Assembly (NCBI GenBank): GCA_041665145.1
Contig: JBAYJK010000002.1
Span: 168,339 to 232,338 of the forward strand
Source of the DNA: Patescibacteria group bacterium
GTDB taxonomy: Bacteria > Patescibacteriota > Microgenomatia > UBA1406
DNA length: 64,000 nucleotides
Reading direction: 5' to 3'
Each line of letters starts with the position of its first letter. The stretch's first letter is position 1. A program made the position numbers and the translations under genes. The notes under the pieces are model-generated. The model saw nothing but the letters and a program-made list of their open reading frames with translations, was not told the DNA's origin and did no database searches. Shown piece by piece: positions 4,123 to 62,946 of the stretch.

Positions 4123-4148
4123 TTGTTTTGGTTACTAGTAATCCTTGT

Positions 4149-4177
4149 ATTATACTATACAAAATGCTATAAGTCAA
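4149..4177 (-). promoter_or_regulatory. sigma70-like promoter of 97..4122
   Basis: Minus strand: TTGACT (4172..4177), 17-nt spacer, TATAAT (4149..4154). Confidence 0.6.
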
Positions 4178-4186
4178 AATAATTAT

Positions 4187-7291: not shown

Positions 7292-8269
7292 CTATTTAAA
7301 TATCATTTTAATACAACTGAGCAAATCAGAACCCGAACGCAGCTCACTTTCATCCGGTAAAGTAAAGCAACAACCAGGAACCCTTACTGGCGCATTGAGT
7401 TGCATATCCCGAAGCAATCTCCAGCCTGCTGATGAGGCAAGCTTTTCTTCCTGACTGATAACTACAGGAGCACCGTTATCGATTATTCCTCGAGCAGCCG
7501 ATGCTTCGGCCAGTTGAGCATCCTCAATGGCAAACTTCCCATCAAATAGTGCAGCATCTAAAGCACTTCTTCGTTTTCTACTATAGCATGGGGTCTGATG
7601 GTAGTGTATTTTAAAAACCCTTGGCTGTGCAGACTCGTTGTACGTAACGGATATTGGCAAATAGTCACATGCGTGGAGTATCATTTTATGGAAAAGTGTT
7701 TGAACCACGTGACAATAATAATCAACCTGGGTTTGCTGAATTGTTCCGCGTGTTCGTTCATACATTGCTGACACTAACTTATTTGAAACCGCAATAATCT
7801 CATTTATGATACGCATTAATAGTGGGTTTCCTGCATCAAAATCATCACGGAGATCACATCCGTCGCGCTTGGTAAAAACAGCATCATATTGCCGCCATAG
7901 CATTCCGTTAAAGGCTGCCAGAACTGTATCAGACAAAGCCTCTGTTATACTCATGCCGACACCCTGAATGTTAGCAAATGTGGTGTACGCGTCTCGTACG
8001 AAAAACACTAAGTCCCGCTGCATGTTTCCCAAAAGTTGCCTTAAAGTGGCTTCGGAAAACAGCGATCTGCCCTGTTCTTGCTGGGTTGCAATAGCAAAGT
8101 AATCAAGAAACTGCGCAACAGAATCAATCCTCCAAATCGCCTCAATTAATTTGCGGTATAACAATGCATCACGTTGTGGCAATGTCTCAGAAGGTGATCT
8201 TATCTCGCGGTATGGAACCAAAAAAGAACCCCTTGATTGAGATAGTGCGGTAGATTCAGTTTTTGCCAT
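7292..8269 (-). CDS. orphan protein (325 aa)
   Basis: Long ORF with its own promoter at 8286..8314. No recognisable motif. Confidence 0.65.
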   Translation of the reverse strand: MAKTESTALSQSRGSFLVPYREIRSPSETLPQRDALLYRKLIEAIWRIDSVAQFLDYFAIATQQEQGRSLFSEATLRQLLGNMQRDLVFFVRDAYTTFANIQGVGMSITEALSDTVLAAFNGMLWRQYDAVFTKRDGCDLRDDFDAGNPLLMRIINEIIAVSNKLVSAMYERTRGTIQQTQVDYYCHVVQTLFHKMILHACDYLPISVTYNESAQPRVFKIHYHQTPCYSRKRRSALDAALFDGKFAIEDAQLAEASAARGIIDNGAPVVISQEEKLASSAGWRLLRDMQLNAPVRVPGCCFTLPDESELRSGSDLLSCIKMIFK

Positions 8270-34288: not shown

Positions 34289-35638
34289 ATGCATTCTAGA
34301 AGAGAAGTTCTTGGAATTGATGGATTAAAAGGAGCTATTCGCTCTATGATGTCAGCTAATGCTGCTACTGACGAGGACGTTAGGAGAGATCGCGCATTTG
34401 AACTGGTTGCAGAAGGTGGGCTTGGGGTTGTTATTGCTGCACTTGCGCTTACCGGAGCTCAAGATAAATATAGGGCAGTCGCAGTTACTGCAGAGCGGGC
34501 ACTACCCGATTCAAGAGTTTATACCGAAGGCCAAAGTCAGTCTGACACATTAAGAAAACTTACCACATCCCTTTCGCAACGTATAGCCAGAGTTTCTTCT
34601 GTTTGGGACAGATTCAGTAGAACTGAAATCGTATTGGAACTGCAAAAAACCGGCGAAGTTTGCACAGGCACCGGAAGCAACAGTAGTTGTACTGACACAT
34701 ATGGATGGGTACCTACTCCAAAAACTGTCTGGCATGAACCACCAGAACTTATAGCACTTGGCATTGACCGCCACAACCTTTACAATTGGCAAAGATTACT
34801 TACGAATGTAGGTAGCGGCATAGGAACTCTGAACGCTCAATCTCGTGGCTCATTTGACTTATCCCGCGGAGGTGCTGTTCTCGACTTTCGAGAGCAAGCG
34901 CTCGATATGGGTATCAGTAATATTTTAAGTGTTTTCCTCTATGGAGGTGCGGGTGCCGCGATGATTAAATACGAGGAATGGAGTCAACGGTTGCTGCGCG
35001 CCATCGGTCGAGATGATTTGTCTGGAATTGACCCCCGGTACGCTATAAAACGAAGGTCGGTGCTCAAATTAGGTGCGGTAGGTGCAGGAGCACTTCTTGT
35101 CAGACAAATACAAAAAGCATTGGGGGCGGGTAACCAAAATATACTCCAAGATGTCCAAGGTCATGCCGCACGTGTTCTGGCAGATATTCAAGCAAATCCC
35201 GAAAAATCGTTAGCTGAGTACATGACCATGCATGTTCATGAGCTTGCTGCACTGTTGGGAATGATCAATAGAATAGCCGAACAAGCAATAAATCTTCCCC
35301 GAGTCACCGAGGATTTTGATTACGGACAGTGGAAAAATGTAATAAGACCGGAAGTTGAAAACCTGTTTTACGACAGTCAGGCAGCTATTGCCCGTTTTAT
35401 AGAGTTTTTCAATTACGACCACAGGGTAAGATCCTATACAGTTCCAACTCAATTATTGCAACTTGCGGGAAGCACTGCCGGGACAAATAGAATCTTGAGT
35501 TATGCAAATACGAGGCGTGGAGAGCTTACCATTTCTCACCCTCTGCACGCCCTCTTGCTTGCCGGAGGATTTGCCGCGATTGCTGCTGCTGGGGAAAAAG
35601 TAATCTTTCCTGCAATTGACCATGCTGTTGGGCAATAA
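34289..35638 (+). CDS. hypothetical membrane protein (449 aa)
   Basis: Long ORF with several hydrophobic segments. TGGTATAAT ends 6 nt before the ATG. Confidence 0.55.
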   Translation: MHSRREVLGIDGLKGAIRSMMSANAATDEDVRRDRAFELVAEGGLGVVIAALALTGAQDKYRAVAVTAERALPDSRVYTEGQSQSDTLRKLTTSLSQRIARVSSVWDRFSRTEIVLELQKTGEVCTGTGSNSSCTDTYGWVPTPKTVWHEPPELIALGIDRHNLYNWQRLLTNVGSGIGTLNAQSRGSFDLSRGGAVLDFREQALDMGISNILSVFLYGGAGAAMIKYEEWSQRLLRAIGRDDLSGIDPRYAIKRRSVLKLGAVGAGALLVRQIQKALGAGNQNILQDVQGHAARVLADIQANPEKSLAEYMTMHVHELAALLGMINRIAEQAINLPRVTEDFDYGQWKNVIRPEVENLFYDSQAAIARFIEFFNYDHRVRSYTVPTQLLQLAGSTAGTNRILSYANTRRGELTISHPLHALLLAGGFAAIAAAGEKVIFPAIDHAVGQ

Positions 35639-35641
35639 TTG

Positions 35642-36502
35642 TCACTGTGGAATTTCTTCGAGAATATCCTTATTTCTCTTGTCCGGTCCTACTCCATCAA
35701 ACCCCGGAACCTCGAGAATAAGCGGAATATTCTTCAAAAGAGGTTGGTGAACAATATTTTTAAATCCTTCAATACCAATTTTCCCTTCCCCGATATTCTC
35801 ATGGCGGTCATGCTTGCTTCCCAGATCAGTTTTTGAGTCATTTACATGCAAACACACCAGATGTTCAATCCCTATTTTTTCATCAAATTCCTTAAGCCAC
35901 TTCCCAAAAATCTCTTTGTTACCCGTATCAACTCCTGTCGCAAATAGATGCTGAGTATCAATGCAAAACTTGACGCGAGATCCGAGATGCGGGACGCGTG
36001 ACGATATTTCGTTATGTAGGTATACGAGCTCACCGAGCGTTGCACCCACACGTCCTCCACCCCCGGCCGCATTTTCGATGATTAGCTTTTGGTTCGATGG
36101 TGTTTTCTCAAGAATTTTTAGAAAAGATGTCACTAATTGTTCTTTCACATCATCGAATGTTCTTTCTTTATAACTGCCGATATGGAACACTGTTCCTGTG
36201 GAATTTATTTTTTCACCAAACTGCATGTACCCGATTAACGACTCGATAGACGCGTGAACGAGTGACGGTTTTTCTGATGCAAGATTCAAAAGGTAAATCG
36301 CATGAAACACCAAAAACTGCATATTGTTTTCTTTGTACAGTTTATTGAATCTATCTATTTCTTCCGGGCTGACAGACGGTTTTGAATAAGATTGCGGAGC
36401 GCTAGCAAATATCTGAATACCGTTAAACTCACGTTCGACTGCCCGTTCTACAGCCTTACTTATTCCTCCTGCGATTGAAACATGTCCGCCGATTATTCTC
36501 AT
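35642..36502 (-). CDS. nfo: endonuclease IV (deoxyribonuclease IV)
   Basis: MRIIGGHVSIAGG, CIDTQHLFATG and LHVNDSK...GSKHDRHENIGEGKIG are present. Confidence 0.85.
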   Translation of the reverse strand: MRIIGGHVSIAGGISKAVERAVEREFNGIQIFASAPQSYSKPSVSPEEIDRFNKLYKENNMQFLVFHAIYLLNLASEKPSLVHASIESLIGYMQFGEKINSTGTVFHIGSYKERTFDDVKEQLVTSFLKILEKTPSNQKLIIENAAGGGGRVGATLGELVYLHNEISSRVPHLGSRVKFCIDTQHLFATGVDTGNKEIFGKWLKEFDEKIGIEHLVCLHVNDSKTDLGSKHDRHENIGEGKIGIEGFKNIVHQPLLKNIPLILEVPGFDGVGPDKRNKDILEEIPQ

Positions 36503-36530
36503 ATAATTTTCAGTTTTTAGTTTCTAGTTT

Positions 36531-37064
36531 TCAATCAATTTTCAATTCAGAGAAAGCTTTTTCGAACACCGTAGCTAATACTTTTCTTTCTTCCTCTGTA
36601 AAATTCTGTAACACATATGCTTCTCCTGGTATTCTGTTTTCCGAATTTCTGTTATCCACTCCTATGCGCACTCTCCAGAAATCTTTTGTTCCCAATAATT
36701 CCTCAACCGAATTAACTCCATTATGCACTTTTGGCCCTTTGCCAAGGTTGATTTTATATTCGCCGAGTTTCAAATCGAGATCGTCGTGGACCACCAGCAA
36801 ATCTCGAATATCGAAGTTCGAATATCGAATATATGAAGACACTGCCTTCCCCGATTCGTTCATAAACGTTTGAGGTTTAAGTAGAACTAATTTCTTTCCC
36901 TCGAATTCGATTTCAATAATCTCACTTTGAAACTTACCACTTTCCTTTTTACTTTCTACCTTAGACTTTCGACTTATGTAATCCAAAAACAGAAATCCCA
37001 CATTATGTCGCGTATTTGCGTATTTTTCTCCCGGGTTTCCAAGACCTGTTATTAGCTTTGTCAT
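36531..37064 (-). CDS. pth: peptidyl-tRNA hydrolase
   Basis: LITGLGNPGEKYANTRHNVGF and LLVVHDDLDL are present. The start overlaps the upstream stop (ATGA). Confidence 0.85.
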   Translation of the reverse strand: MTKLITGLGNPGEKYANTRHNVGFLFLDYISRKSKVESKKESGKFQSEIIEIEFEGKKLVLLKPQTFMNESGKAVSSYIRYSNFDIRDLLVVHDDLDLKLGEYKINLGKGPKVHNGVNSVEELLGTKDFWRVRIGVDNRNSENRIPGEAYVLQNFTEEERKVLATVFEKAFSELKID

Positions 37065-37918
37065 TTAAATTTTGAGCTTGATTTGTGTATTTGTAGATTT
37101 GAATTTTGAATTTCTGCCGAGAATACCTCATCCGGGTTCAGTCTGAACAGTCCTTCATTCAATCGTTTTTGATCGAGATAGTGCGCAATAAACCCGACTG
37201 ATCGGGAAAGAACAAAAAAGGCGTTAAAAAATTCGGCTTCAATTAATTGCTGAATTGCTAAATTGTCAAACTGCTCCTCGGAAGTTAATAAATCAAGAAG
37301 AATTGCAGCAATAGTTCCGTCCACATTTAATATCAAATTCGGCTTTTTTGCGGACGTAATCTTTTCAACTTGCTGCGCATATTTCAGATACTCACCGCCT
37401 ACCCCCTTAACTGATGCTTGCAGCATTTTTACTCGAGGGTCCGGCATGTCTATCCGATATTTTTTATGTCCGATACCCGGAATGTATCTTTTTTGATGCG
37501 CGAACTCCTCGATAAGAGCAGCAGGCTCTTTTTGATCAGAGACAGCTGTATAAAATACCTGTGCAGAAGCGTTAATTGCGCCACCAAACCGGGGTCCGAT
37601 AGTTAATAGCCCTGAGACCAGTGACGACACCAAATCTTTGCCCGCACGGGCGGAAATAATGGTATTAACCGCACCGGATTGGTAGGGACCATGATCGACA
37701 AGTAGTTTAAGAACTAAATCGATGAAATTCTCAGTTTTTAAAGATTTGAGCTCTCGCCCTAACCATAAAGATCCGACAATCGCCGCAAAGGATTGCTTCT
37801 CTGCGACCTCCGTCAGTTTTTTTCCTAAAATAACCACTTCCTCGTCAACCTCCCCAGAAATAGTTGAGGTGAAAAGAGTGTGTTTTCGCTCTTTCAGATC
37901 ATTTATTTTTTTATCCAT
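37061..37918 (-). CDS. citrate-synthase-like domain protein (citryl-CoA lyase / ATP-citrate lyase C-terminal module)
   Basis: LVDHGPYQSGAVNTIISARAGKDLVSSLVSGLLTIGPRFGGA and IPGIGHKKYRIDMPDPRV resemble the ACLY C-terminal / Ccl pattern. Confidence 0.65.
   Translation of the reverse strand: MDKKINDLKERKHTLFTSTISGEVDEEVVILGKKLTEVAEKQSFAAIVGSLWLGRELKSLKTENFIDLVLKLLVDHGPYQSGAVNTIISARAGKDLVSSLVSGLLTIGPRFGGAINASAQVFYTAVSDQKEPAALIEEFAHQKRYIPGIGHKKYRIDMPDPRVKMLQASVKGVGGEYLKYAQQVEKITSAKKPNLILNVDGTIAAILLDLLTSEEQFDNLAIQQLIEAEFFNAFFVLSRSVGFIAHYLDQKRLNEGLFRLNPDEVFSAEIQNSNLQIHKSSSKFK
37064..37113. repeat. family B element (half copy) overlapping a gene junction
   Basis: aaattttgagcttgatttgtgtatttgtagatttgaattttgaatttctg encodes the C-terminal tail EIQNSNLQIHKSSSKFK of 37061..37918. 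Confidence 0.65.
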
Positions 37919-37954
37919 AAAAGTATTTTACCTCATATTCCATATTCTTATATT

Positions 37955-38938
37955 CTATATTCTCAACTCTCTCAGCACTTTCCCTAATTCCCCAAAACTT
38001 TCTGTCACGATAACTCCCGCTTTTTTCAAGGCCTCCCGTTTTTGACGCGCCTTTTCACCAACTGTTTCGGCTTTTGCCTTTGCATGTCCGAATTGAGGGC
38101 TCTCGGAAAACAAATCTGCAACAGTTCCTGCAATATGAGCGATCACCTTTTTCGGATTTCGTGCTTCGTGCTTCGAGTTTTTGTTCAGAATGTCTATCAA
38201 CTCATATTCATCCGTGCCTCCAAGCTCACCATAATAAACAATGGTTTTGGTCTTTGGGTCTTCAAGAGCCAAAGCAAACGCGTTTTTGGGTGTTAGCAAG
38301 GGAAACCTATCTCCGCCAAATGAGAGCGAAAACGACAAATGGTGGCCACTCTGCAACACAACCGAAATGAGCTCATTTGTCATACCTCCTGATGCAGACA
38401 TGACCGCGACATCTCCTTGTTCTAATATTCCAGATGTAACAATCTGCTCGGGCGTAATACCACCGATCGGACCAAGTTTTAAAATTCCGGGAAGAACCAA
38501 GCCCACACTTGCGGGACCGATTAACAGCCTTCCATTTTTTACAACGGTATTATAGAGCTCCAAACTATGCAATTCAGGAACTCCTTCGGCAAAAAAGACT
38601 CCGCCAGTAAGATTCGTAAAAAGCCTATTCATAACGATCCCGGTAGATAATGCTCGGCGGCCGGAAGAGAGATTAATAAACCAATCAATTAAGTGTGCGT
38701 TCTCAACTCGTTCGAATGTATGATACTGTGAAATAAGTACTTCTTTTTTACCCCAGAAGTACTTTAGATGCGCATCGGAATTTCCGATTATTCCGAATAT
38801 GCTCGGTTTGCTTTTCCCCGCCAAATAGTCGAAGTCCAATATTGATTGGACTATTTGCGGATGATTCCCCACCACAAGAATATTATTCCGCCCATTTCTT
38901 ATTGCTTCTATCTTTGAGATTTGAATTTGATTTGTCAT
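37955..38938 (-). CDS. succinyl-CoA-synthetase-alpha-like / ATP-citrate lyase CoA-ligase module
   Basis: CoA-binding and ligase_CoA pattern: MSASGGMTNELISV and the phosphohistidine-loop-like SPQFGHAKAKAE. Confidence 0.65.
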   Translation of the reverse strand: MTNQIQISKIEAIRNGRNNILVVGNHPQIVQSILDFDYLAGKSKPSIFGIIGNSDAHLKYFWGKKEVLISQYHTFERVENAHLIDWFINLSSGRRALSTGIVMNRLFTNLTGGVFFAEGVPELHSLELYNTVVKNGRLLIGPASVGLVLPGILKLGPIGGITPEQIVTSGILEQGDVAVMSASGGMTNELISVVLQSGHHLSFSLSFGGDRFPLLTPKNAFALALEDPKTKTIVYYGELGGTDEYELIDILNKNSKHEARNPKKVIAHIAGTVADLFSESPQFGHAKAKAETVGEKARQKREALKKAGVIVTESFGELGKVLRELRI

Positions 38939-38963
38939 TTGTTATTTGAGTTTTGAATTTCTG
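38914..38963. repeat. family B element overlapping a gene junction
   Basis: tttgagatttgaatttgatttgtcatttgttatttgagttttgaatttctgac encodes MTNQIQISKIE of one gene and SEIQNSNNK* of the next. Confidence 0.65.
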
Positions 38964-40161
38964 ACAATGCCTTTTTAACTATCTCTGTAAGCACCATTTC
39001 CGGTCCGGCAACGTGTCCGAGTATTTCGTTATCGGATAAGAATTTATGCATCAGGGCTAGCCCTTTGTCTTGGTTTGGACCACCTCGCCGCACGTATACC
39101 TGGATATGCTGCTTTTGCAAAAGGGCGATTTCTTCTTTTAGTGCTTGGATAATTCCTTTGAAAGTCTTTGTAACGTCCGTGAAATTTGCTACACCTCCGG
39201 CTATAACAAGAACTTTCTTCTCTGCTTTTGAATCGAGCATAGTTTTGATAATGGTCTTTGTATACAAATACGTATCTTCCGTTGAAGGACTTCCACTATA
39301 TTCACCATAGTTTCCCAACTCTTTTCCATACCCAAGATCTGCAACCTCGTCGGCAAGAACCAAACTTGCCCCACCGCCCGACAGCAGCATCCAGATGCTT
39401 CCGTTCGGATTAATAACCTTGAGTTTAAGGGAAGCCGGGGTTGTTGCATCAAGCTGACGGACCTGTTTCTCCGCAGGGTGTTCTGACAGCTCATCTACAG
39501 CGCTTGACGATCCGTAAGGGCGAGACCCTGCATCGTCTGCGAGAACGGCACAATCTAGGAGCTGGAAGTTGGTCGTTTGAAGTTTGGAGACTGTAGCCTG
39601 CAATTCGACGAGCGGATTGATTTCGAGAAATGAGAAATGATATTTGTCCATTATCTGACAGAGCTTTATTACAAAATCGTTTCGCCTCTCCTCGTCAGTT
39701 TTCCTCGTCGTTTCTCCCGATTTTGTTTGTTTGTTTCGAGATTCGAGATTCGAGATTCGAGATTCGTTTATGCTCTCCCAATTGTCTTCCACCTCAATTC
39801 CTCCCTTCTCCGAATACAAAACCCGCATCCCTTCACGCACACGTTCTATCGACAAATAATGTTCTTCTTCCGGTTTGTGAGTAACTAATTCCTCGATAAG
39901 AAATTGGGTATACCCCTGTTTTGATTTGTCTTGTATAAACTGAACACATTCATCCGGAGTAGCGTTAATTTTAACCAAACCTTGTTTTCCCCTTTTCTTA
40001 ATTCCCTGATCTACCTTCACTACCAGTTTCTTTCCCTCAAATAAAGAGATTATTTCTTGCGTTGTTATCGATATTGTTGCCGGTAAACCCAGCCAGGTGA
40101 GACGCAATTCTTTGGAGAGTATGTTTTTTGCCGAAAATTCGCTTATTTTAATCCGTGCCAT
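38935..40161 (-). CDS. ATP-grasp / citrate-binding subunit (ATP-citrate lyase beta-like or citryl-CoA synthetase large subunit-like)
   Basis: The N-terminus MARIKISEFSAKNIL resembles ACLY/SucC. LGNYGEYSGSPSTEDTYLYTKTIIKTM matches ACLY [23 protein letters not shown]. Confidence 0.65.
   Translation of the reverse strand: MARIKISEFSAKNILSKELRLTWLGLPATISITTQEIISLFEGKKLVVKVDQGIKKRGKQGLVKINATPDECVQFIQDKSKQGYTQFLIEELVTHKPEEEHYLSIERVREGMRVLYSEKGGIEVEDNWESINESRISNLESRNKQTKSGETTRKTDEERRNDFVIKLCQIMDKYHFSFLEINPLVELQATVSKLQTTNFQLLDCAVLADDAGSRPYGSSSAVDELSEHPAEKQVRQLDATTPASLKLKVINPNGSIWMLLSGGGASLVLADEVADLGYGKELGNYGEYSGSPSTEDTYLYTKTIIKTMLDSKAEKKVLVIAGGVANFTDVTKTFKGIIQALKEEIALLQKQHIQVYVRRGGPNQDKGLALMHKFLSDNEILGHVAGPEMVLTEIVKKALSEIQNSNNK
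39737..39764 (+). repeat. perfect heptamer tandem array (CGAGATT)x4 inside the CDS 38935..40161
   Basis: Read directly from the sequence. On the minus strand it encodes ESRISNLESR within an apparent insert. Confidence 0.9.
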
Positions 40162-40171
40162 TGTGATAATC

Positions 40172-40206
40172 AGTAGCTAGTAGTTAGTAGATAGTAGATA
40201 GTATAT
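40172..40206 (+). repeat. degenerate heptamer array (AGTAGNT)x5 in the leader of the ACL-like operon
   Basis: The units are agtagct agtagtt agtagat agtagat agtatat. The heptamer is the same as in 19684..19711. An extended -10, TGGTATTAT, lies at 40205..40213 on the minus strand. Confidence 0.8.
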
Positions 40207-40222
40207 AATACCATAAGAAATT

Positions 40223-40293
40223 AGGGGCGTCGTTCAACGGCAGGACTGCGGTCTCCAAAACCGCCAATGGGAGTTCGATTCTCTCCGCCCCTG
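40223..40293 (+). tRNA. tRNA-Trp (anticodon CCA)
   Basis: Hand-folded: acceptor AGGGGCG/CGCCCCT, D stem GTTC/GGAC, anticodon stem GCGGT/ACCGC, loop CTCCAAA, T stem GGGAG/CTCTC with TTCGATT. 71 nt. Confidence 0.85.
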
Positions 40294-40378
40294 CATTAAA
40301 AACTGTTTGCGAAGTATGAGCATTACAGTTTTTTATGCCCTTCCGAAGCTTTAGCGAAGGAGGGCTCGATTTTGCATC

Positions 40379-41674
40379 ATGACAAACACAAAACATATTT
40401 ACGCCTTTATTCTCGGTCTCAATCATTCTTTGAGTAAAGTCGAGATCTTGAATGTACTGGTAAAACAACAGATAGATTTTAAGCTCGTGGAATGCTCGCA
40501 AGAAGTGCTGATAATCGAGTCTGCCACAGATCTCAAAACACTCAACATCGAGCTGTTCGGAGGCGTCGTGAAGTTTGTAGAGATAATAAAGACTGCTCCA
40601 CTGGAAACGTTTTTTGCAGACGACTCTGATTTCTTTTCCTCAGTCGATATTGCCGATTTTATTCCCGATAAAGCAGAAAAAATTACGTTCGGTGTGAGTG
40701 TGTACAGTGCCGGGTGTAAATTCAAAGACCTTAATTATGCCTGGTATATTGCTCCCAAGTTTGCGGAATGGGTACAGTATGCTTCCGATTTACTCGACAC
40801 GAAAGCAAACTTTCTCCCGTTAAAAGAACGCCGCCTGTCAACTGCCGCAGTTGACAAAGGGAGATTGCTGAAACGTGGTTTTGAAATGTGTTTATGCGTC
40901 GGCAGTGAGAAAATGTATATCGGAAAAACTCTCGCCATTCAAGATTACGCAAGTTACGGTTTCCGTGATTACGGTAGACCGGAACGTGACGCTCATGCAG
41001 GTATGATTCCTCCGAAAATTGCCAAAATCATGATTAATCTTGCAAACCAAAACAAGCTCGCAACCATGTATGACCCGTTCTGCGGAAGCGGAACAATGCT
41101 GGAGGAAATGATGCTTTTGGGGTTCAGAAAACTGAAAGGATCAGATATGAGTGACAAGGCAGTAGCCGATTCCAAGGCAAATTTGAAATGGCTATTCGAA
41201 CATTATGGCGATATCAAACGGGAAACATATCAGTTCGATTTGTTTCAAGCAGACGTCACCCTATCTTCGCAGAAACTGGATCTTGAAAGCATCGATGCAA
41301 TTGTCACCGAGCCTTATCTTGGGTCTGTTAACGCCCGGTATTTCAACAAAGTTCAGGCTGCCAAGGAAATGGACATGCTTGAAAGATTGTATCTTGAGAC
41401 ATTTGGCCAATTCAGAAACATTCTTCATCAAAACGGTGTTGTGGTAATTATTTTCCCAGTCCTCAAGGTACGTCAGGAGTTTTTCTATTTGCAGATTCTT
41501 GACGATTTAAAAATTGAAGGATGGGTTCAACAAAGCTACGTCCCTCAGCAGTTTAACAATGAAAAAGATCTTGCAAAACTCAATTTAACACTGACAGATC
41601 GAAATTCAATTGTATACTTCCGCCCCGATCAAACTGTTTCGAGAGAAATAATGGTATTCAAGAAAACTAAATGA
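40379..41674 (+). CDS. class I SAM-dependent methyltransferase (UPF0020/Trm11-like RNA methylase)
   Basis: Motif I is MYDPFCGSGTMLEE. A motif IV-like IVTEPYLG stands in for the DPPY type. Confidence 0.65.
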   Translation: MTNTKHIYAFILGLNHSLSKVEILNVLVKQQIDFKLVECSQEVLIIESATDLKTLNIELFGGVVKFVEIIKTAPLETFFADDSDFFSSVDIADFIPDKAEKITFGVSVYSAGCKFKDLNYAWYIAPKFAEWVQYASDLLDTKANFLPLKERRLSTAAVDKGRLLKRGFEMCLCVGSEKMYIGKTLAIQDYASYGFRDYGRPERDAHAGMIPPKIAKIMINLANQNKLATMYDPFCGSGTMLEEMMLLGFRKLKGSDMSDKAVADSKANLKWLFEHYGDIKRETYQFDLFQADVTLSSQKLDLESIDAIVTEPYLGSVNARYFNKVQAAKEMDMLERLYLETFGQFRNILHQNGVVVIIFPVLKVRQEFFYLQILDDLKIEGWVQQSYVPQQFNNEKDLAKLNLTLTDRNSIVYFRPDQTVSREIMVFKKTK

Positions 41675-54974: not shown

Positions 54975-55790
54975 CTATAAATCAAGCTTCTTAAGAAATT
55001 CTTTGTCACGCACATTCGTCCCTTCGGTCGACCCACCAATTTCTTTTTTACCTATGTGTTGCTGTTTTAATAGTTTCCCCTTTGGTTTGTATTCCTCGAC
55101 AATCTCACCATCTATAATATGAAATATCTTTGTCGCATACTTCAGATATTCCAAGTCATGAGTAACCATAATGATCGTTTTTTGTTCTTCAATCAATCCA
55201 AGAAATCTCTCCAACAGTTCCTGCCCTGAATTAGTATCAAGATTACCCGTCGGTTCATCTGCAACAATAAGCATAGGATCCAGAATTAATGCCCGAGAGA
55301 GACTGATTTTTTGCTGCTGGCCGGAAGACAGTTCGGTCGGTTGATACCCGGCCCAACGTTCCATATCAACTTTTGCAAGGACTTGGTGAATTTTCTCATT
55401 TATTTTTTCTTCGTCCATGTTCAATAAGTTGAGCGGGAAAGCAATATTGTCACGCACATTATATGAGCCGATCCACAAAGGTTGTTGGTAGATCATCCCG
55501 ACCTTATGCCGTCGATATTGCGCACGTTCGTCCTCAGACATCGTATAGAAGCTCTTTCCTTCAACCAATACTTCGCCTGATGTTGGATTTTCCAACCCCA
55601 AAAGACAATGCAAAAGTGTGGACTTACCGCACCCTGACGGTCCGAATATGATTACGAACTCACCTTCATCAACTGTCAGATTAATCCCTTTCAAAACTTC
55701 CACCTGACCCTCACCCACTTTAAATGATTTTCGCAAATCTTTTGCCGCCAACACGGTTTTTTTCGAGTCTGTCATATTATTTTCCAACAT
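54975..55790 (-). CDS. ABC transporter ATP-binding protein (MacB/LolD-like)
   Basis: Walker A is GPSGCGKST, the signature is LSSGQQQKISLSRAL, Walker B is LIVADEPTGNLD, and the H-loop is VTHD. Confidence 0.9.
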   Translation of the reverse strand: MLENNMTDSKKTVLAAKDLRKSFKVGEGQVEVLKGINLTVDEGEFVIIFGPSGCGKSTLLHCLLGLENPTSGEVLVEGKSFYTMSEDERAQYRRHKVGMIYQQPLWIGSYNVRDNIAFPLNLLNMDEEKINEKIHQVLAKVDMERWAGYQPTELSSGQQQKISLSRALILDPMLIVADEPTGNLDTNSGQELLERFLGLIEEQKTIIMVTHDLEYLKYATKIFHIIDGEIVEEYKPKGKLLKQQHIGKKEIGGSTEGTNVRDKEFLKKLDL

Positions 55791-58700
55791 TCTTTAAAAA
55801 CCCGAATGTTTTGGCGAGGTTTTCAACTACTAATGTCAATGCGTCTTGAGTGGACTTTGGTGTAACAATAACCGAGTCCGCAGATTGCGCGATATTTGCG
55901 GCCTTGTCCTTGGAAATCGCACGTAGATGATAAATGCGCGCCGGTGACAACCCGGTAACCGTAACAATGTGATTGGTTGTCTTATTCGTATCCTCCTGCG
56001 TTGTCTGACCATATGAGGTACCTGTACCCTGAGCATATTCGACTTGAGTCGTAGCAGGCTCATCCGTATCCCAACTGGCTATTATTTGAGCCTTGGCATC
56101 ACTACCAATTCCGGTAATTGTGCTTTCGACATTGAGATTCAAAATCTCCGGTGGTCTAAAATCAACAGCCGTTTTTGCTTTAAGCGGAGCGGAAACTGCC
56201 TCGTTGCCAGCGCTGTCTTTACCTTTGATAAGAACAATGTAATCCGTGTCATCCAACAGATCTTTAATGATCATTTCATGATTAAGTTTCAAAGCCAGCG
56301 TAATTTGATCTTTGGCAGCAGACGGGTTATTCGCCGGATAATAGGTAACGATTGAGGAGACTGGAGCGTTAGACGTCCACACCACTCTGAATGTAGCCAT
56401 GGCCATACCGGCAACCTGCTGCAGTTTTGTCGCGGTAATTTTCGGAACCGGCAGCGTTTCAAATGTATAGTCGTCACCCGCAAATGTGTTTCCTTCCTCA
56501 TCTTTACCTACCAGTCGTAAATGATAGGGAGTACCTTCGGCAAGGTTGGTCAAACTCACTGTATATTCTGATTCTCCTGTTGCTGTTGCAATTGATTGTG
56601 AACTTCCGTAATTGATTGTCGGACCGTATTCGATGGTAGCTTGTGTAGAGTTTTTAACCGTAAATGTAACAAATGCCGAATATAAACTGACATCGGTTAT
56701 TTTTACCGCAGAAACGAACGGAGCCGGGTTGGTGGTAAACGAAAGCTCCTCGGTTTTTCCTGTATTTCCATCTTCATCGGTCCATACTGCCTGATAGTAA
56801 TAGGTTGTTCCCGGGTCAAGACTGTTGAGTGCTATGCTATGCAGCGTTACCGGATCGGACGAGCCTGCTTCGTTATCATATGTACCGGAGGTCTTGCCAT
56901 ATTTCACGAAAGAATTACTCTTTCTGCTTGTCGACCACTCGATGATTGCCGACTTTGTTTTGACCGTTGCAGATTGACTTGCCACGAGATCCGGAGCAAC
57001 TCGCCACTTGCCGTCCGGATACATCTTCACCGTACTCGAGGGAGCTGAACACTGATTTGTTACATTACAGGCTTTTACACAGAAATAGTTGTCTGTCTGA
57101 GTAAGTTTGTCATTAACAAATGAAGTATCGGTTAAGTACGACGCGACTTTGCTAAACGAGCTCATGTCGGTCGTACAATTCGCGCTGGTTTCTGTTGAAC
57201 GATACGCTTCGTAATAGGCAACACCGGCAGAGCCGCTTGCAACCGGTGCATCCCATGTTATCGCCAATCTCCATTTGCTCGTTTCTTTAACTGAAACATC
57301 CGCTATATCAACATCCGTCGGTATGCCCGGGGCGGATGTGTCTGCATAGAAATCTACGGACTCATGGGTGTTGTACGTCATATTCCCCACCTCATCTTTC
57401 GAAACAATATATATTGTGTTCTTACCTACTTGAGAGGCATAGAAATCAGACGGTAAATATGATTGTGATCCCGCGAGTGTCACATTCCCTGCAGTCGGGA
57501 GTGCATTGATTGAGTAATAGTATTTCAATCCCGCCTGAGTCCCACCGAAATACGCAGGTGGTTGCCATGTAAATGCAAATTCACCCGTTGTGCTGTGTTC
57601 AGGACTAACCTGTAAGCTTTGTACGGGACCGGGAGCAGTTTCAAGAAGTTGATAGGTTACGGTTTTATAGCTCACCGCATAATTACCTGCAACATCTTTG
57701 GTCCGCAAATAAAACGTATTGTTCCCTTCCTGGTACGCGGAAATACTGCTGACTGACAAATCATATGTACACAACTCAGATGAACCGATAGCTCCGGTTT
57801 TATAGCAATACTCGAGGTCCGGGGCAGCCTCGCTCCAGCTAAAATTATACGAATTAACATTAGTGGGACCCGGTGGGTCAACAATAAGCGTGGTCGGATT
57901 GTCCGGTTTTTGATCGTTAAATTTATAGGTAAATGCAGCATATTCTCCGCTACTGATATTTCCCGCATTGTCTTTTGTTTTAATTCGTAAATAATACGTC
58001 TGACCTGCTGTTAAATTGGTTGGCGTAAGGTGAGTCGTCGTCTGGTACGTTCCCTCGGTGATGATATCTGCGCTTGGAGAGGCATCAAAATATACGTAAT
58101 AACCAGCAATCCCCGCGCCGTTTGCACCGTCAGTTGCTCCTCCAATTACCTCGTCATCAGGCCATTCGAAATACGGAGCAGTGTGGTTATACCAATTTCC
58201 AGACGTGAGAGCAGCGCTTTTTGTGGCCGTAGTATAAGCCAAGACTGAAGTCGGGTTTATTGGCTCATCGACGTCCTGATAATATGAAATTGTATAATCA
58301 TTAATTGTCGGTGAATACACTCCATCGCCAGAGGTCAGATCGAATTTCACCTGGAGATACCGTTTTGTTGCCGACCCAATCTTATAAGTCCTGTTAGTCC
58401 CGACGATCTTCTCACTGGTCGCAAGCTGCCACTCGTCCCAGGTAGCATTATCAGACGAGGTTCGTGTGGATACGGCGATAGCAGAGTTGGTTGCAGAAAC
58501 ATAATTTAGATTAAGATTTGCAAACCGATAAACGGCCGTGAGATCAATTGATCCCGAGATGTAACTTCCCGACTCCTGAAAAGAAGTAGTGTCTGATTGC
58601 ATGACGTAGGTATATAATCCGTTCGTATATGTGTTTGTCCCTCCTCCAGCGATTACCAACATTTTTTCGGTGCCAAACGCAGCTCCCGACCCTCCAGTGT

Positions 58701-61700
58701 AGATCTGCGCAGGGGCGTTAGCAATTGCAGTCCACGAGTTTCCGGAAATTGAGTACGAATAACACCCAACCTGATTACCCCCTCGGCACGCATACAACAG
58801 ATCATTACCACCGTCAACCAAGAAACCGTCATTATACACAAGTGCACCGGTTGGTAAATCAGCAACTGCGGGATCGCTCCAGACCGGCGTTCCGGAAAGA
58901 GGTCCGTAGCGGTAAAAAGCTACGGTATTCTGACCGCGAAGCGCATACAAGTAATCATTCTTAATTACCAGGTCAGATCCATACTGGAGTGTCCCCGGCG
59001 GGTTAGCAAGAGCCGCGCTCCATTTCGCACCAGCCGTTCCTTGTGTATTAAACCGATAGAACCTTTGTGTCGTTTGTCCCTGTGTCCAATAGATATATTG
59101 CGCACCATCATAGACCATGCTCGTACCATAGTCAGGATCAAATGGTGGCGGATCCAACGTTTCTTCACTCCATACGTCCGTTGCAATATCATATATAAAC
59201 AGCTTGCGATAATAAGAGCTGGTAGTAGCATAAATCTTGTTGTGCGTCGATTCGTAGACCAGTTTTCCACCGTTATAAAAACCGGCGGGAGCGTCTGCAA
59301 GTTTCGTAATTTCTCCGGTCAGTGGATTGTAACGTGAAAATAGATTGTCAAAATTTCCGCGGACAAGATAAAAGTTATTCCCGTCTCCCCGAATAATGTC
59401 CGCACCATACGAAAATGTCCTCACATCATTGCCCCTGAACCACCCATTAAACAGACCGACGTTCGGAATCATCCACGATTGTTTGGCAATATTATATTTA
59501 TAGAATTGTTGACCTCCACCACCTCTGATAACATACAAGACACCGTTGACATTGCGAAGCGTTGATCCTGCGGCAATCGCAAGCGGAGCATCAGGTAACG
59601 TACTCCATGTTTGGGAGGCGATATCATACTTAAAGAAGAGTGTTGTATTCCATCCTGCCAAAAAGTATATTGCATTGGTTGTCTCATCAAATTCGATGTT
59701 TGCACCTCCTGCCGCAAGCGCCGGAAGATTTGGTAGTTGTGTCCAGGAATTATTGGAGACATCATAAGTTGCAAATCCTGAACGAGCACTTCCCTGCATT
59801 ACGTATATGATATTGTTTGTCCTGTCCATCGCCAAGTCTCCTCCATCCTGTACTACATTATTCACCTGTCTTTCAGGGGCACCAAAATCAATATTTGCAA
59901 GCGTCTCCCAGTTGTCGGTATCCGTATCGTATCGCATAAATGTGTCGTCACTGTTCCCTTTGAGGGCATATATATAGTGACCACCGTCATACACCAATGA
60001 CCCACCATAACTTATTGGTTGTGGCGCATCTGCGGGAGAATCGCTCCACGTATTTTCTGAAATATTGTAACTCCAAAAGCTCGTTGTATTTTGCCCACGG
60101 GTTCCGTACAAATATCCTGCAGGACCCTCTATAACATCGTCTCCATAGTAGGCAGTTGCAGGAAGGGCCCCTTTGGTAGTCCACACATCAGTGGTTAGAT
60201 CATACTCATAAAAGGTGGTACTTCCATAACCTCGATTTAAATACATTTTGTTCGTTGAGGAGACATACGCAAGGTCGGAACCATAGTAAATACCAGCCGG
60301 CGGCATCGTCAATCTCTCTTGTTGCCAGAAACCCGCCTTTGGAGAGAGCGTGATTTTGCCACTTTGTGTTGAGATGTTTGTTGCAACACCATCCAAAAAG
60401 TCTTCAGTAGATGTTTTGGTAACAGTCTGAGGAGGCGAAACACCAATGTAAGTATATACGAACCCGGTTACAGCAGCCGAAACATTATTACTTGTATCCT
60501 TTGTCTTCAACCGCAGGTAATATGTTTCTCCCTTGATCATCGGCTGCGTCACTAAATAGTTAAGTTCTGTTTGTAGCGCGCCCAGCGTTTGAGGATCAGC
60601 GGCACTGTTTGTTCCAAAATAGACATAGTACCCGGCAACTGACATCTGACTGTCGGAGCCTACTGTCCAACTTATATACGGTGAGGTATGTTTGTAACTC
60701 TGTCCTGAAGTAATTGCAACTCCGCCGGCGGCTTGAGAAAGGCCGGAAAATGTTGCCGGATTACTTGGGGCAATTTCATCACCGGTATAATTAATCTGTA
60801 AAGATTGTATGCTGGGAGTTTGCGAACGTCCTGTTGATGCAGCGAGTGTCGCCCGTACCTGAATGTAACGCGCCGGATTTGAGGCAATTGCTGTTCCACT
60901 CACTGTTTGCCAACCGCTCCATGTTACTTGATCGCTACTCGTTCGGGTTTCGAAAATAATCGACGAATCATCGGGAGTAGTTGTCCAAGCAATAAGCGAA
61001 GCAAAGCTTTGTACGTAGTTTAAATCGAGCACATTACTCGTCCAAGAACCGGACGCAACATAGTTATAGGCTGATGGTGTGTACTGATGAAGCCCGAGGA
61101 GATTTTGTCCACTTATCGAGTATATCGCCCCGTTTGAACTATTTATTGTCAGTGACCCCCCATTGTATGGTCCGTTACTATAATAATAGGTCGATTGTAG
61201 ATCGGGAAGCCTGCGCCAAGAATTTGTTGCAATTATATATTCCCAAAAATCCGGTTTATAGTAACCAGCTTGAAAGAATATCTTCCCGCCATAATAGCGC
61301 ATATCCGTTCCCCAGTGAGGTGTAAACGGGAGACTATTGACCACTGTCCATGTGTTAGTACCAACAACATATTTCAAGAGCGAAGAGGTCCCATACCCGC
61401 TGGAATAATAAATATCCGTTCCATCGGACGTTAGGCGTGAACCGTACGCAGCTTCCGCATTATCGGGAAGGTCTGCAACCGCAGGATCACTCCATGTATC
61501 AGTGGATATTTGATATCTCCAGAAAATACGTGTCACAGCGCCTCGCGTACCGTAAATAAAGTCACCGCTTCCCGGATACACAAGAGTTGCACCATAATTC
61601 ACGGCAACTGGAGTTAATGCAGCTAGTGTTGTCCAAGTACCACCTGTAGTACTGTATTTATAAAAATCGCGTCCACCACTCCCCCGATAATAGTAAATAT

Positions 61701-62946
61701 CGCTTCCAACCAATACGCCTTTCGTATCATCGTTGAAATTAACCGGTGCGCTAGTGAGTGTGGTCCATATCCCGGTTGCAACTTCATATCGGTAATAGAG
61801 CGCTGAATTATTGCCTCTGGCATAGTAAATAAACCCATTATAGTAAGTTATGTCCGCACCGGATCCAGGCGTGTTTGGAAGGTCAGTCGGTCCCAAAAAC
61901 ACATTAGTGGTGGGATTATACTTCCAAAAATCATACTGCCCATTACCTCTGAAGACATAAACATAATCGTCAGCTGCATTATAAACCGCCCCGACATAAC
62001 GAGTCGCTTGCGGTGTATTTGTCAAGGTGGTCCATGTATTTGAACTGATGTTGTACTTATAGAATGTTTGAGTTGCCTGGCCTCGGGTAACAAATATCTC
62101 ATCACCGCGCAGAGCTGCTGTTTTATCCTCAGTATTGCTCGCAGGCATAACTGCCAAAGGGGTTGTATTGTTCGTCGTGGTCGTATGCCACGAGTTTGCA
62201 GAGACATTGTAACGATACATTGTAGTTGTACCACCGCCTCGCAGGGCATAAAAATTACCGTCGTAATAATTCAGGATTGCTCCGTTATACATAGCAAGAG
62301 CCGGATTCGAAACTCCCGACCATGTATTTGTTGCGACGGTGTATTTCCAAAAGTCGGTAGTCGAGGTTCCCCGAAGACAAAATATGTTTGTTCCATCTGT
62401 TGAGCATGAAGCACCACCATAAACTAAGTCCAGCATGTTTGACAAAGCTTCCCAGGTGTTCGTCTGAATAGAATACCGATAAAATTCTTTTTGATACCCT
62501 CCGAACTCGGCATAAATATAGTTTCCCAGCACAACAAGTTGCGCACCCGGATAACTGAACTTTGGAGCAGGGGCAAGCGTCTTCCATTTGTTTTCGGAGG
62601 GAATATACCGTACGAAGTGGTTATCGGCGTTATGAAGAATGTATACATACTCTCCATCCGACGCGATCGCAGCCTGGTCACCAAGAGTAAGATTCGGGGT
62701 TTTGAATGCCCGAGGACCCCACGCTCCATCCGGCTGTAAACTCAATGTTCCTTCTTTACTGGCAGTGTTAGTTCCATTTTGCAGCCCAAGTTCGAAATCA
62801 CTTCGGGATGTAACTGTCCGCGAAGCAGCTTGTACTTTCGGTGGCATAAGCGTAGTATGGAAAAAATACCACACTGTTAGCCCCCCAAAAATCAACAACG
62901 CTCCCGTGATATGGTTAACAACTTTGTGCATATAATTACTATACAT
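55777..62946 (-). CDS. giant N-terminally anchored surface protein (2389 aa): two supermodules of about 800 aa (12 Kelch-like blades + beta-sandwich + FN3-like) followed by an FN3-like array
   Basis: N-terminal TM ITGALLIFGGLTVWYFF. There are 24 occurrences of the blade motif [FLMC][YWF]x[YF]xxxxxx[WF] at a period of about 44-48 aa. The C-terminal domains carry KD(x)AGN and (I/V)EYG motifs. The gene overlaps the ABC ATPase start by 14 nt. Confidence 0.8.
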   Translation of the reverse strand: MYSNYMHKVVNHITGALLIFGGLTVWYFFHTTLMPPKVQAASRTVTSRSDFELGLQNGTNTASKEGTLSLQPDGAWGPRAFKTPNLTLGDQAAIASDGEYVYILHNADNHFVRYIPSENKWKTLAPAPKFSYPGAQLVVLGNYIYAEFGGYQKEFYRYSIQTNTWEALSNMLDLVYGGASCSTDGTNIFCLRGTSTTDFWKYTVATNTWSGVSNPALAMYNGAILNYYDGNFYALRGGGTTTMYRYNVSANSWHTTTTNNTTPLAVMPASNTEDKTAALRGDEIFVTRGQATQTFYKYNISSNTWTTLTNTPQATRYVGAVYNAADDYVYVFRGNGQYDFWKYNPTTNVFLGPTDLPNTPGSGADITYYNGFIYYARGNNSALYYRYEVATGIWTTLTSAPVNFNDDTKGVLVGSDIYYYRGSGGRDFYKYSTTGGTWTTLAALTPVAVNYGATLVYPGSGDFIYGTRGAVTRIFWRYQISTDTWSDPAVADLPDNAEAAYGSRLTSDGTDIYYSSGYGTSSLLKYVVGTNTWTVVNSLPFTPHWGTDMRYYGGKIFFQAGYYKPDFWEYIIATNSWRRLPDLQSTYYYSNGPYNGGSLTINSSNGAIYSISGQNLLGLHQYTPSAYNYVASGSWTSNVLDLNYVQSFASLIAWTTTPDDSSIIFETRTSSDQVTWSGWQTVSGTAIASNPARYIQVRATLAASTGRSQTPSIQSLQINYTGDEIAPSNPATFSGLSQAAGGVAITSGQSYKHTSPYISWTVGSDSQMSVAGYYVYFGTNSAADPQTLGALQTELNYLVTQPMIKGETYYLRLKTKDTSNNVSAAVTGFVYTYIGVSPPQTVTKTSTEDFLDGVATNISTQSGKITLSPKAGFWQQERLTMPPAGIYYGSDLAYVSSTNKMYLNRGYGSTTFYEYDLTTDVWTTKGALPATAYYGDDVIEGPAGYLYGTRGQNTTSFWSYNISENTWSDSPADAPQPISYGGSLVYDGGHYIYALKGNSDDTFMRYDTDTDNWETLANIDFGAPERQVNNVVQDGGDLAMDRTNNIIYVMQGSARSGFATYDVSNNSWTQLPNLPALAAGGANIEFDETTNAIYFLAGWNTTLFFKYDIASQTWSTLPDAPLAIAAGSTLRNVNGVLYVIRGGGGQQFYKYNIAKQSWMIPNVGLFNGWFRGNDVRTFSYGADIIRGDGNNFYLVRGNFDNLFSRYNPLTGEITKLADAPAGFYNGGKLVYESTHNKIYATTSSYYRKLFIYDIATDVWSEETLDPPPFDPDYGTSMVYDGAQYIYWTQGQTTQRFYRFNTQGTAGAKWSAALANPPGTLQYGSDLVIKNDYLYALRGQNTVAFYRYGPLSGTPVWSDPAVADLPTGALVYNDGFLVDGGNDLLYACRGGNQVGCYSYSISGNSWTAIANAPAQIYTGGSGAAFGTEKMLVIAGGGTNTYTNGLYTYVMQSDTTSFQESGSYISGSIDLTAVYRFANLNLNYVSATNSAIAVSTRTSSDNATWDEWQLATSEKIVGTNRTYKIGSATKRYLQVKFDLTSGDGVYSPTINDYTISYYQDVDEPINPTSVLAYTTATKSAALTSGNWYNHTAPYFEWPDDEVIGGATDGANGAGIAGYYVYFDASPSADIITEGTYQTTTHLTPTNLTAGQTYYLRIKTKDNAGNISSGEYAAFTYKFNDQKPDNPTTLIVDPPGPTNVNSYNFSWSEAAPDLEYCYKTGAIGSSELCTYDLSVSSISAYQEGNNTFYLRTKDVAGNYAVSYKTVTYQLLETAPGPVQSLQVSPEHSTTGEFAFTWQPPAYFGGTQAGLKYYYSINALPTAGNVTLAGSQSYLPSDFYASQVGKNTIYIVSKDEVGNMTYNTHESVDFYADTSAPGIPTDVDIADVSVKETSKWRLAITWDAPVASGSAGVAYYEAYRSTETSANCTTDMSSFSKVASYLTDTSFVNDKLTQTDNYFCVKACNVTNQCSAPSSTVKMYPDGKWRVAPDLVASQSATVKTKSAIIEWSTSRKSNSFVKYGKTSGTYDNEAGSSDPVTLHSIALNSLDPGTTYYYQAVWTDEDGNTGKTEELSFTTNPAPFVSAVKITDVSLYSAFVTFTVKNSTQATIEYGPTINYGSSQSIATATGESEYTVSLTNLAEGTPYHLRLVGKDEEGNTFAGDDYTFETLPVPKITATKLQQVAGMAMATFRVVWTSNAPVSSIVTYYPANNPSAAKDQITLALKLNHEMIIKDLLDDTDYIVLIKGKDSAGNEAVSAPLKAKTAVDFRPPEILNLNVESTITGIGSDAKAQIIASWDTDEPATTQVEYAQGTGTSYGQTTQEDTNKTTNHIVTVTGLSPARIYHLRAISKDKAANIAQSADSVIVTPKSTQDALTLVVENLAKTFGFLKNVGK

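Follow-up and report, generated by a model that had tools for sequence, protein, structure and literature searches.

ATP-citrate lyases (ACLs) are described either as one long polypeptide, as in human ACLY, or as heteromeric AclA/AclB enzymes, and the citrate-cleaving system of Hydrogenobacter thermophilus consists of three polypeptides. In the classic evolutionary account, a citryl-CoA synthetase (CCS) and a citryl-CoA lyase (CCL) were fused to give ACL. Here we describe three consecutive genes, designated g1, g2, and g3, that are predicted to encode a three-subunit ACL in a Patescibacteria group bacterium. They reside on the minus strand of a 64,000-nucleotide stretch of contig JBAYJK010000002.1, which was analyzed as a whole and is hereafter called the window. 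Patescibacteria, also known as bacteria of the candidate phyla radiation (CPR), are usually described as lacking the enzymes of the tricarboxylic acid (TCA) cycle.

The closest solved enzyme is the AclA/AclB pair of Methanosaeta concilii (PDB 6hxi), which has the same domain set and order as the window proteins and the same gene order, aclA followed by aclB. It also shares with them the citrate-binding loop, the phosphohistidine loop, the equivalent of Glu599 of human ACLY, and, in the CCL module, the His/His/Asp residues. In heteromeric AclA/AclB enzymes, the CoA-ligase and lyase parts are joined on one polypeptide, whereas in the window they are encoded by two genes and a linker of ∼20 to 25 amino acids is absent. 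These enzymes also carry a GHAGA loop, for which the window has GHAKA. Human and other eukaryotic ACLY proteins belong to the same ACL clade, with identities of 40%, 37%, and 45% over the aligned modules, but human ACLY is one polypeptide of ∼1100 amino acids whereas the window encodes three polypeptides without the linker regions. The CcsA/CcsB and Ccl proteins of H. thermophilus (PDB 6hxq and 6hxp) are likewise three polypeptides, comprising ATP-grasp, CoA-ligase, and lyase parts, and the same overall chemistry is expected of them. However, their sequences are distant, g1 has ACL-type citrate-binding and ATP-grasp domains at high score, and the layout in the window appears to have arisen by fission of a fused AclB. 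The sequences closest to the window genes are those of other Patescibacteria that have aclA with a fused aclB. Sieber et al. (2019, PMC6851277) reported a two-subunit ACL for a Gracilibacterium and proposed that it converts scavenged citrate to acetyl-CoA and oxaloacetate, and in a 2025 study aclAB was enriched in Saccharimonadia (PMC12577380). These are also CPR bacteria with reduced metabolism, but their AclB is fused.

Family assignment and conserved residues

The g1 gene (38935..40161, minus strand, 408 amino acids) encodes an aclA-like subunit in which an ATP-grasp domain of the ACL type is combined with a citrate-binding domain. The product of g2 (37955..38938, minus strand, 327 amino acids) corresponds to the N-terminal half of AclB, with CoA-binding and CoA-ligase domains and the phosphohistidine loop QFGHAKA, and that of g3 (37061..37918, minus strand, 285 amino acids) corresponds to the C-terminal half, which is the CCL or citrate-synthase-homology (CSH) module. 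A first-pass annotation, made from the sequence alone, had proposed three adjacent minus-strand genes for the parts of an ACL, and our calls of open reading frames (ORFs) place them exactly there. All of the peptide motifs that it had quoted were located in the translations (LGNYGEYSGSPSTEDTYLYTKTI in g1, QFGHAKA in g2, and GPRFGGA and IPGIGHKKYR in g3), and both of the ATGA overlaps that it had listed can be read directly on the sequence. At 38938..38935, the stop codon of g1 overlaps the ATG of g2, and at 37064..37061 the stop codon of g3 overlaps by 4 nt the ATG of pth, a gene for peptidyl-tRNA hydrolase. Absent from that annotation was the observation that g2 and g3 share a reading frame and are separated by 36 nt (37919..37954, minus strand, as read from the sequence), which is the point of the fission considered below.

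Profile searches assign the three proteins to ACL families. In Pfam, g1 matches PF24948 (ACL ATP-grasp; 122 bits against a cut-off of 83, E 3e-35) and PF16114 (Citrate_bind; 211.8 bits against 26.8, E 7e-63), and g2 matches Ligase_CoA (E 6e-14) as well as Succ_CoA_lig. The match of g3 to Citrate_synt (E 2e-21) covers profile positions 142 to 355 of 357, which is the C-terminal two-thirds rather than a full-length citrate synthase (CS) domain. Against solved structures, the best E values for g1, g2, and g3 were 2e-65, 6e-49, and 9e-60, with values from 1e-45 to 1e-65 against 6hxi, and identities to solved ACL structures ranged from 37% to 50%. In the order g1, g2, and g3, the scores were 225, 156, and 206 bits with M. 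concilii AclA/AclB (g3 with AclB residues 350–606), 207, 170, and 200 bits with human ACLY (g3 with its CCL module), and 134, 99, and 133 bits with Chlorobium AclA/AclB. The corresponding scores were only 55, 67.5, and 77 bits with Hydrogenobacter CcsA, CcsB, and Ccl (6hxq_B, 6hxq_A, and 6hxp_A). Among succinyl-CoA synthetase (SCS; SucC, SucD) structures, g1 and g2 reached 34 and 67 bits, and g3 reached 40 bits or less with CS. Thus, ACL chains outscore the CCS/CCL, SCS, and CS structures three- to fourfold.

The first-pass annotation had read these genes as an ACL-type enzyme and not as SCS plus CS, and the NCBIfam models agree with the structure scores on this point. Ordinary SCS and CS are ruled out, since all of the scores are far below the respective cut-offs. 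For the SCS models, g1 scored 62.4 bits against 375.55 and g2 scored 99.1 bits against 336, and for the CS models g3 scored at most 57 bits where cut-offs are 332 or higher. The best score with the citryl-CoA lyase models was 101.6 bits, for which the cut-off is 212. Neighbor-joining trees of AclB, of the CCL module, and of AclA likewise place all three subunits inside the ACL clade. These sequence comparisons place g1, g2, and g3 in the true ACL clade and outside the CCS/CCL family.

Functional residues were mapped to human ACLY numbering by way of PDB alignments. The g1 protein keeps K58, G309, N346, F347, T348, and R379 of ACLY as K49, G290, N326, F327, T328, and R359, and the citrate ligands G309, N346, T348, and R379 are therefore all retained. 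In g2, the phosphohistidine H760 is H285 (QFGHAKA) and E599 is E118 (FAEGVPE), and in g3 the residues H900, H975, D1026, and R1065 are H76, H151, D200, and R239. The phosphohistidine and the citryl-CoA lyase Asp and His residues, which the first-pass annotation had singled out for checking, are thus present. Conservation was assessed over 11 split and 68 fused relatives. The equivalents of H760 and E599 are invariant (79/79), as are the other mapped catalytic positions of g2 and g3 except for H900N in two relatives, namely the split locus L005 and one fused locus. The histidine that is replaced by Asn in the g3 of L005 is that of a DHGP motif. The Lys of the GHAKA loop is the norm among CPR proteins. 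This comparison of residues suggests neither decay nor an altered substrate.

Position and origin of the break in aclB

The g2 gene ends in a TAG codon (37955-37957), the 36-nt spacer holds a second in-frame stop codon (TAA), and a GAGGT motif resembling a Shine–Dalgarno sequence is located in the spacer 5′ of the g3 ATG. Both the spacer and the GAGGT motif are conserved in the closest relative, L084, which is 68% identical. The ENA and Logan assemblies carry the same locus with identical gene lengths. Moreover, all of the g2 homologues listed, of which there are at least 120 at 52 to 68% identity, are 300 to 388 amino acids long and are without a Citrate_synt domain, and metagenomes thus contain the split form in abundance.

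To survey the wider occurrence of both forms, two conserved peptides of the CCL module were used to scan the species-representative genomes of GTDB. At least 598 loci were confirmed, and the best 80 of these were analyzed. The ORFs of each locus were called anew, with code 25 applied to those of Gracilibacteria. Among the best 80, 66 CPR-type loci have aclA with a fused aclB of ∼600 amino acids, five outgroup loci also have a fused aclB, and eight loci are split (L004-L007, L015, L024, L048, and L049). Further split loci, in addition to that in the window, are L001, L003, L084, and L085, which were obtained by exact protein look-up in metagenome and NCBI assemblies.

In every split locus examined, g2 and g3 are adjacent and co-oriented, and in most of them the two genes are in different frames, with spacings from an 8-nt overlap to 1000 nt. 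The breakpoint nevertheless lies at one homologous position in all of them. The g2 protein terminates just past the final helix of its CoA-ligase domain, and g3 begins at M-x-D-L-x-N-R-x-H-S-L-F-T-S. Fused AclB proteins from CPR have an interdomain linker of 20 to 25 amino acids precisely at this point, which is missing from the split proteins, and no other sequence feature separates the two forms. That a single homologous breakpoint persists despite varied frame and spacing excludes sequencing error and pseudogenization, and it indicates a single event.

Two of the split loci have long spacers, in which Rfam searches found no RNA element. The g2-like and g3-like genes of L004 are separated by 310 nt, and in L005 an ORF of 309 amino acids without a Pfam family (4003-4932) lies between the AclB halves, with its ATG overlapping the g2 stop codon.

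A recoded stop codon or an alternative genetic code was considered and rejected, since the spacer has both TAG and TAA and other loci differ in frame. Both ATGA overlaps use TGA as a stop, and a tRNA-Trp(CCA) gene is located at 40223..40294 on the plus strand, divergent from g1, where it was found by both ARAGORN and Rfam. These features point to the standard code. Assembly error was likewise rejected on the basis of the matching assemblies, the split-length homologues, and the loci that are split out of frame.

The direction of the change was examined with a neighbor-joining tree of concatenated g2 and g3 sequences (79 taxa, 584 columns, 100 bootstraps). The 11 split loci group together with 97% bootstrap support, and the clade that they form is located within a 70-taxon CPR clade (100%) whose remaining members are fused, as is every outgroup. 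Fused lineages diverge before the split clade, at nodes with supports of 43% and 85%. The tree of AclA (g1), which is an independent gene, again groups the loci with split aclB in a single clade (94%), which is four nodes away from the root. A third tree was built from the CCL module alone and includes P0261, a verified Hydrogenobacter-type Ccl (169 bits to 6hxp), and P0202, which is Chlorobium AclB. It recovers the CPR clade at 96% and the split clade at 84%. Pairwise identities of the window g3 are graded in a similar manner. They are 28 to 32% with Ccl-type proteins (29% with P0261), 37% with Chlorobium AclB, 44 to 47% with ACLs of Aquificota, Bathyarchaeota, and eukaryote-like type, and 52 to 68% with split relatives. 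With fused CPR AclB proteins, identity is 51 to 59% for 8 of the 11 compared and 41 to 48% for the other three. Since fused forms enclose the split clade in the trees of both AclB and AclA, the three-gene form is provisionally explained most parsimoniously by one secondary fission of aclB within a sub-lineage of CPR, and the split would be a derived state and not a primitive or separate design.

Two other accounts of the locus must be weighed against a secondary fission. The 36-nt, in-frame arrangement of g2 and g3 is what a nonsense mutation or a sequencing error in a normal aclB would leave behind, and the locus might then be an artefact or a decaying pseudogene. We give this account next to no weight, as it would have to accommodate two stop codons, a spacer whose GAGGT motif is kept in a relative of 68% identity, gene lengths that agree between the ENA and Logan assemblies, a split length in at least 120 homologue clusters, g2 and g3 genes that are out of frame in most split loci, and catalytic residues that are invariant over the split clade. 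The other account holds that the genes were never fused and represent a stage that preceded ACL, in which g1 and g2 form a citryl-CoA synthetase and g3 is a free citryl-CoA lyase, as in Hydrogenobacter, Aquifex, and Leptospirillum. The number of polypeptides and their sizes do resemble CcsA/CcsB/Ccl, Hydrogenobacter-type Ccl proteins exist in Patescibacteria, and a preprint (10.1101/2022.10.25.513756) has noted that CPR have homologues of CCS/CCL bearing SCS or CS annotations. We nevertheless consider an ancestral CCS/CCL system to be very unlikely. ACL chains give 225, 170, and 206 bits with the window proteins, as compared with 55, 67.5, and 77 bits for CcsA, CcsB, and Ccl, the NCBIfam citryl-CoA lyase models stay below half of their cut-off, and g3 is far closer to most fused CPR AclB modules (51–59%) than to Ccl-type proteins (29%). 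In addition, the split clade is nested within fused forms in the AclB and AclA trees, and the linker of the fused relatives corresponds exactly to the end of one split gene and the start of the next.

Some related proteins have other architectures. P0274 and P0258 (243–244 amino acids; from Patescibacteria, including a Magasanikbacteria metagenome-assembled genome) are stand-alone Ccl proteins of the Hydrogenobacter type that carry the NCBI name citryl-CoA lyase. Two citrate-cleavage families thus occur in CPR, and that of P0274 and P0258 differs from the window genes. Proteins of this type may be the CCS/CCL homologues of the preprint cited above. P0140 (275 amino acids) is a stand-alone CCL that adjoins the Gracilibacteria branch, and it may represent a separate split or be a fragment. 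P0125 (1003 amino acids, from a 29-kb NCBI metagenome sequence) is AclB-like and has a single CoA-ligase domain, after which come two CCL/CSH modules in tandem (353–601 and 751–989).

Proposed reaction and subunit assembly

We consider it probable (roughly 0.8) that the locus encodes a three-subunit ATP-citrate lyase of the EC 2.3.3.8 type, in which g1 is AclA and g2 and g3 are the halves of an AclB that was broken once, in an ancestor, at its interdomain linker, and that the formation of acetyl-CoA from citrate is its likely role. By analogy with ACLY and AclAB, the enzyme would convert citrate, ATP, and CoA to acetyl-CoA, oxaloacetate, ADP, and Pi. ATP held in the ATP-grasp domain of g1 would phosphorylate His285 of g2, and the phosphate would then be transferred to citrate on the citrate-binding loop of g1 (G290, N326, T328, and R359) to give citryl-phosphate at the g1/g2 site. 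Attack by CoA at the same site would yield citryl-CoA, which would be cleaved to acetyl-CoA and oxaloacetate, with g3 (H76, H151, and D200) being needed for either the cleavage or the release of products. The g3 protein may act either catalytically, in which case D200 would be the base, or allosterically, and the same two alternatives are debated for human ACLY.

The g3 protein would probably oligomerize into a core to which heterodimers of g1 and g2 bind non-covalently. Because the genes are adjacent and co-oriented and their residues are conserved as in the fused enzymes, a non-covalent (g1 g2 g3)n complex appears to be the most likely assembly. It is less likely that g3 acts on released citryl-CoA in the manner of the Hydrogenobacter CCS/CCL system, which is the main functional rival. 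As to physiology, the likely role of the enzyme would be to supply acetyl-CoA (and oxaloacetate) from imported citrate in a lineage that is generally without a TCA cycle.

Several observations weigh against this interpretation. The residue corresponding to S343 of ACLY is Gly in g1 (it is Ala in the solved M. concilii subunit), and R976 is replaced by Lys in g3, a position at which every CPR relative checked, with one exception, has Lys or Arg. The trees are distance-based (neighbor-joining) alone, and one backbone node has 43% support. The covalent tether between g2 and g3 is gone, and g3 may not stay attached to g1/g2. Even for human ACLY, the role of the CSH/CCL module, catalytic or allosteric, is in dispute (PMC10115795). 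Finally, no TCA enzyme, citrate transporter, or partner enzyme was found among the scanned ORFs of the 64-kb window, a Pfam scan that does not include an ORF of 2389 amino acids at 55777..62946.

The loss of the tether also raises the possibility that the fission altered the mechanism. In such a case, g1 and g2 would constitute a stand-alone citryl-CoA synthetase or a full lyase and g3 would act independently as a citryl-CoA lyase or a CS-like enzyme, with citryl-CoA being set free or flux running toward citrate with a gain of ATP. A two-enzyme route of this kind works in Hydrogenobacter, and some split relatives have g2 and g3 310 to 1000 nt apart with an ORF between them. For human ACLY, the cleavage has been described as reversible, mutants converted acetyl-CoA and oxaloacetate to citryl-CoA, and it is debated whether cleavage occurs in the acyl-CoA synthetase homology (ASH) or the CSH module (PMC10115795). 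However, g2 and g3 are neighbors in the same orientation in each split locus examined, the residues of both modules are conserved as strongly as in the fused enzymes, and the split proteins differ from the fused ones by the linker alone. We therefore judge an altered mechanism to be unlikely. A related proposal is that the split clade is a natural reversal of the fusion that turned CCS and CCL into ACL, with a separable synthetase (g1 and g2) and a lyase or allosteric core (g3), from which citryl-CoA may be released or in which g1 and g2 may be self-sufficient. We regard this proposal as possible but doubtful and offer it tentatively.

Distribution, genomic context, and implications

The best 80 of the at least 598 confirmed loci belong mostly to Patescibacteria, where they are spread over Microgenomates, Levyibacteriota, Roizmanbacteria, Woesebacteria, Saccharibacteria, Magasanikbacteria, Kaiserbacteria, Paceibacterota, and Gracilibacteria, and the lowest-ranked of them are ACLs of Aquificota and Bathyarchaeota. 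ACL is therefore common in CPR. The first-pass annotation had considered both the presence of ACL in this lineage and its three-piece form to be unexpected. The former view does not hold, since most of the best 80 loci are from Patescibacteria and ACL had already been reported there (PMC6851277 and PMC12577380). With regard to the latter, the layout itself is the same as that of CcsA/CcsB/Ccl, but the membership of the three pieces in the ACL clade stands as new. A literature search for a split ACL in CPR found no description. What is new is thus the occurrence of ACL-clade proteins in a three-gene form, whereas ACL in CPR and a three-polypeptide layout were known already.

Database labels give little indication of these enzymes. 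The g2 protein is 100% identical to the NCBI entry 'MAG: hypothetical protein WC775_05140 [Patescibacteria group bacterium]', and JGI labels its relatives as SCS alpha subunit or citrate synthase. Automatic annotation under-calls ACL in Patescibacteria. Many ENA TPA records, including L004-L006, L009-L011, and L014, are named 'uncultured Gammaproteobacteria' or 'uncultured Pseudomonadales' although their ACL genes and neighborhoods group with Patescibacteria, and these taxon names are possibly placeholders or wrong labels. Four Gracilibacteria loci (L064, L065, L073, and L081) are fragmented under code 11, and they are the only ones for which code 25 was needed; with UGA read as Gly, each has an intact aclA and a fused aclB. 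In the neighbor-joining trees, the Gracilibacteria ACLs are set apart from the main CPR clade and are nearer to archaeal and Aquificota sequences, in agreement with the suggestion of Sieber et al. that their origin is archaeal-like.

Downstream of g3 are pth (36531..37064, minus strand, 177 amino acids; TIGR00447, 183 bits against a cut-off of 100; Pfam domain match E 1e-54) and, 28 nt further on the same strand, nfo for endonuclease IV (35642..36502, minus strand, 286 amino acids; TIGR00587, 213 bits). The tRNA-Trp(CCA) gene forms the upstream boundary of the cluster. From the overlaps and the gaps of 28 to 36 nt, it appears that g1, g2, g3, pth, and nfo are probably co-transcribed, with nfo as the last gene. 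Neither pth nor nfo is a component of the ACL. When 35400..40500 was scanned for promoters and terminators, hits were fewer than in shuffled sequence and none was usable, and no convincing terminator was seen between pth and nfo. Co-transcription of pth with the ACL genes had been part of the first-pass annotation. The ATGA overlap of g3 and pth is real, but the linkage is limited to the nearest relative, as the pth overlap is common to the window and L084 only. L084 also has the methyltransferase, TrmB, and PNPOx genes that are located upstream in the window. In contrast, gene calls were inspected for three more split loci (L001, L003, and L085), all of which carry a Band_7 gene on the upstream side and groES-groEL on the downstream side. 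Because L084 alone shares pth and these three loci have groES-groEL instead, the linkage to pth is local synteny in a compact genome and does not reflect functional coupling.

Clustering of the neighboring genes over 80 loci revealed no recurring malate dehydrogenase, citrate transporter, phosphoenolpyruvate carboxykinase, Pta, or Ack, and the neighbors are mostly housekeeping genes. Near fused CPR ACL genes (L009-L042 and L046-L069), the recurring families are MurB (15 loci), two GNAT acetyltransferase families (nine and seven loci), and GlmS (five loci), which is a weak hint at a supply of acetyl-CoA for cell-envelope synthesis or acetylation. In loci of the Saccharibacteria type, aclB is followed by type IV pilus genes (PilB/PilC/PilM-like by eye). 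Elsewhere in the window, four large minus-strand ORFs (97..4122, 4187..6001, 6083..7210, and 7292..8269; 1341, 604, 375, and 325 amino acids) have no Pfam match, and the ORF of 2389 amino acids adjoins an ABC-transporter/FtsX gene pair.

For the ACL family, these findings mean that the path from CCS and CCL to ACL is not one-way, because at least one sizeable clade appears to have undone the AclB fusion at the linker while its catalytic residues were kept. The split clade and its fused sisters, which are 50 to 60% identical, constitute a matched natural pair that bears on whether the CSH module is catalytic or allosteric and on the benefit of fusion. For the physiology of CPR bacteria, the enzyme suggests that citrate may be an imported source of acetyl-CoA.

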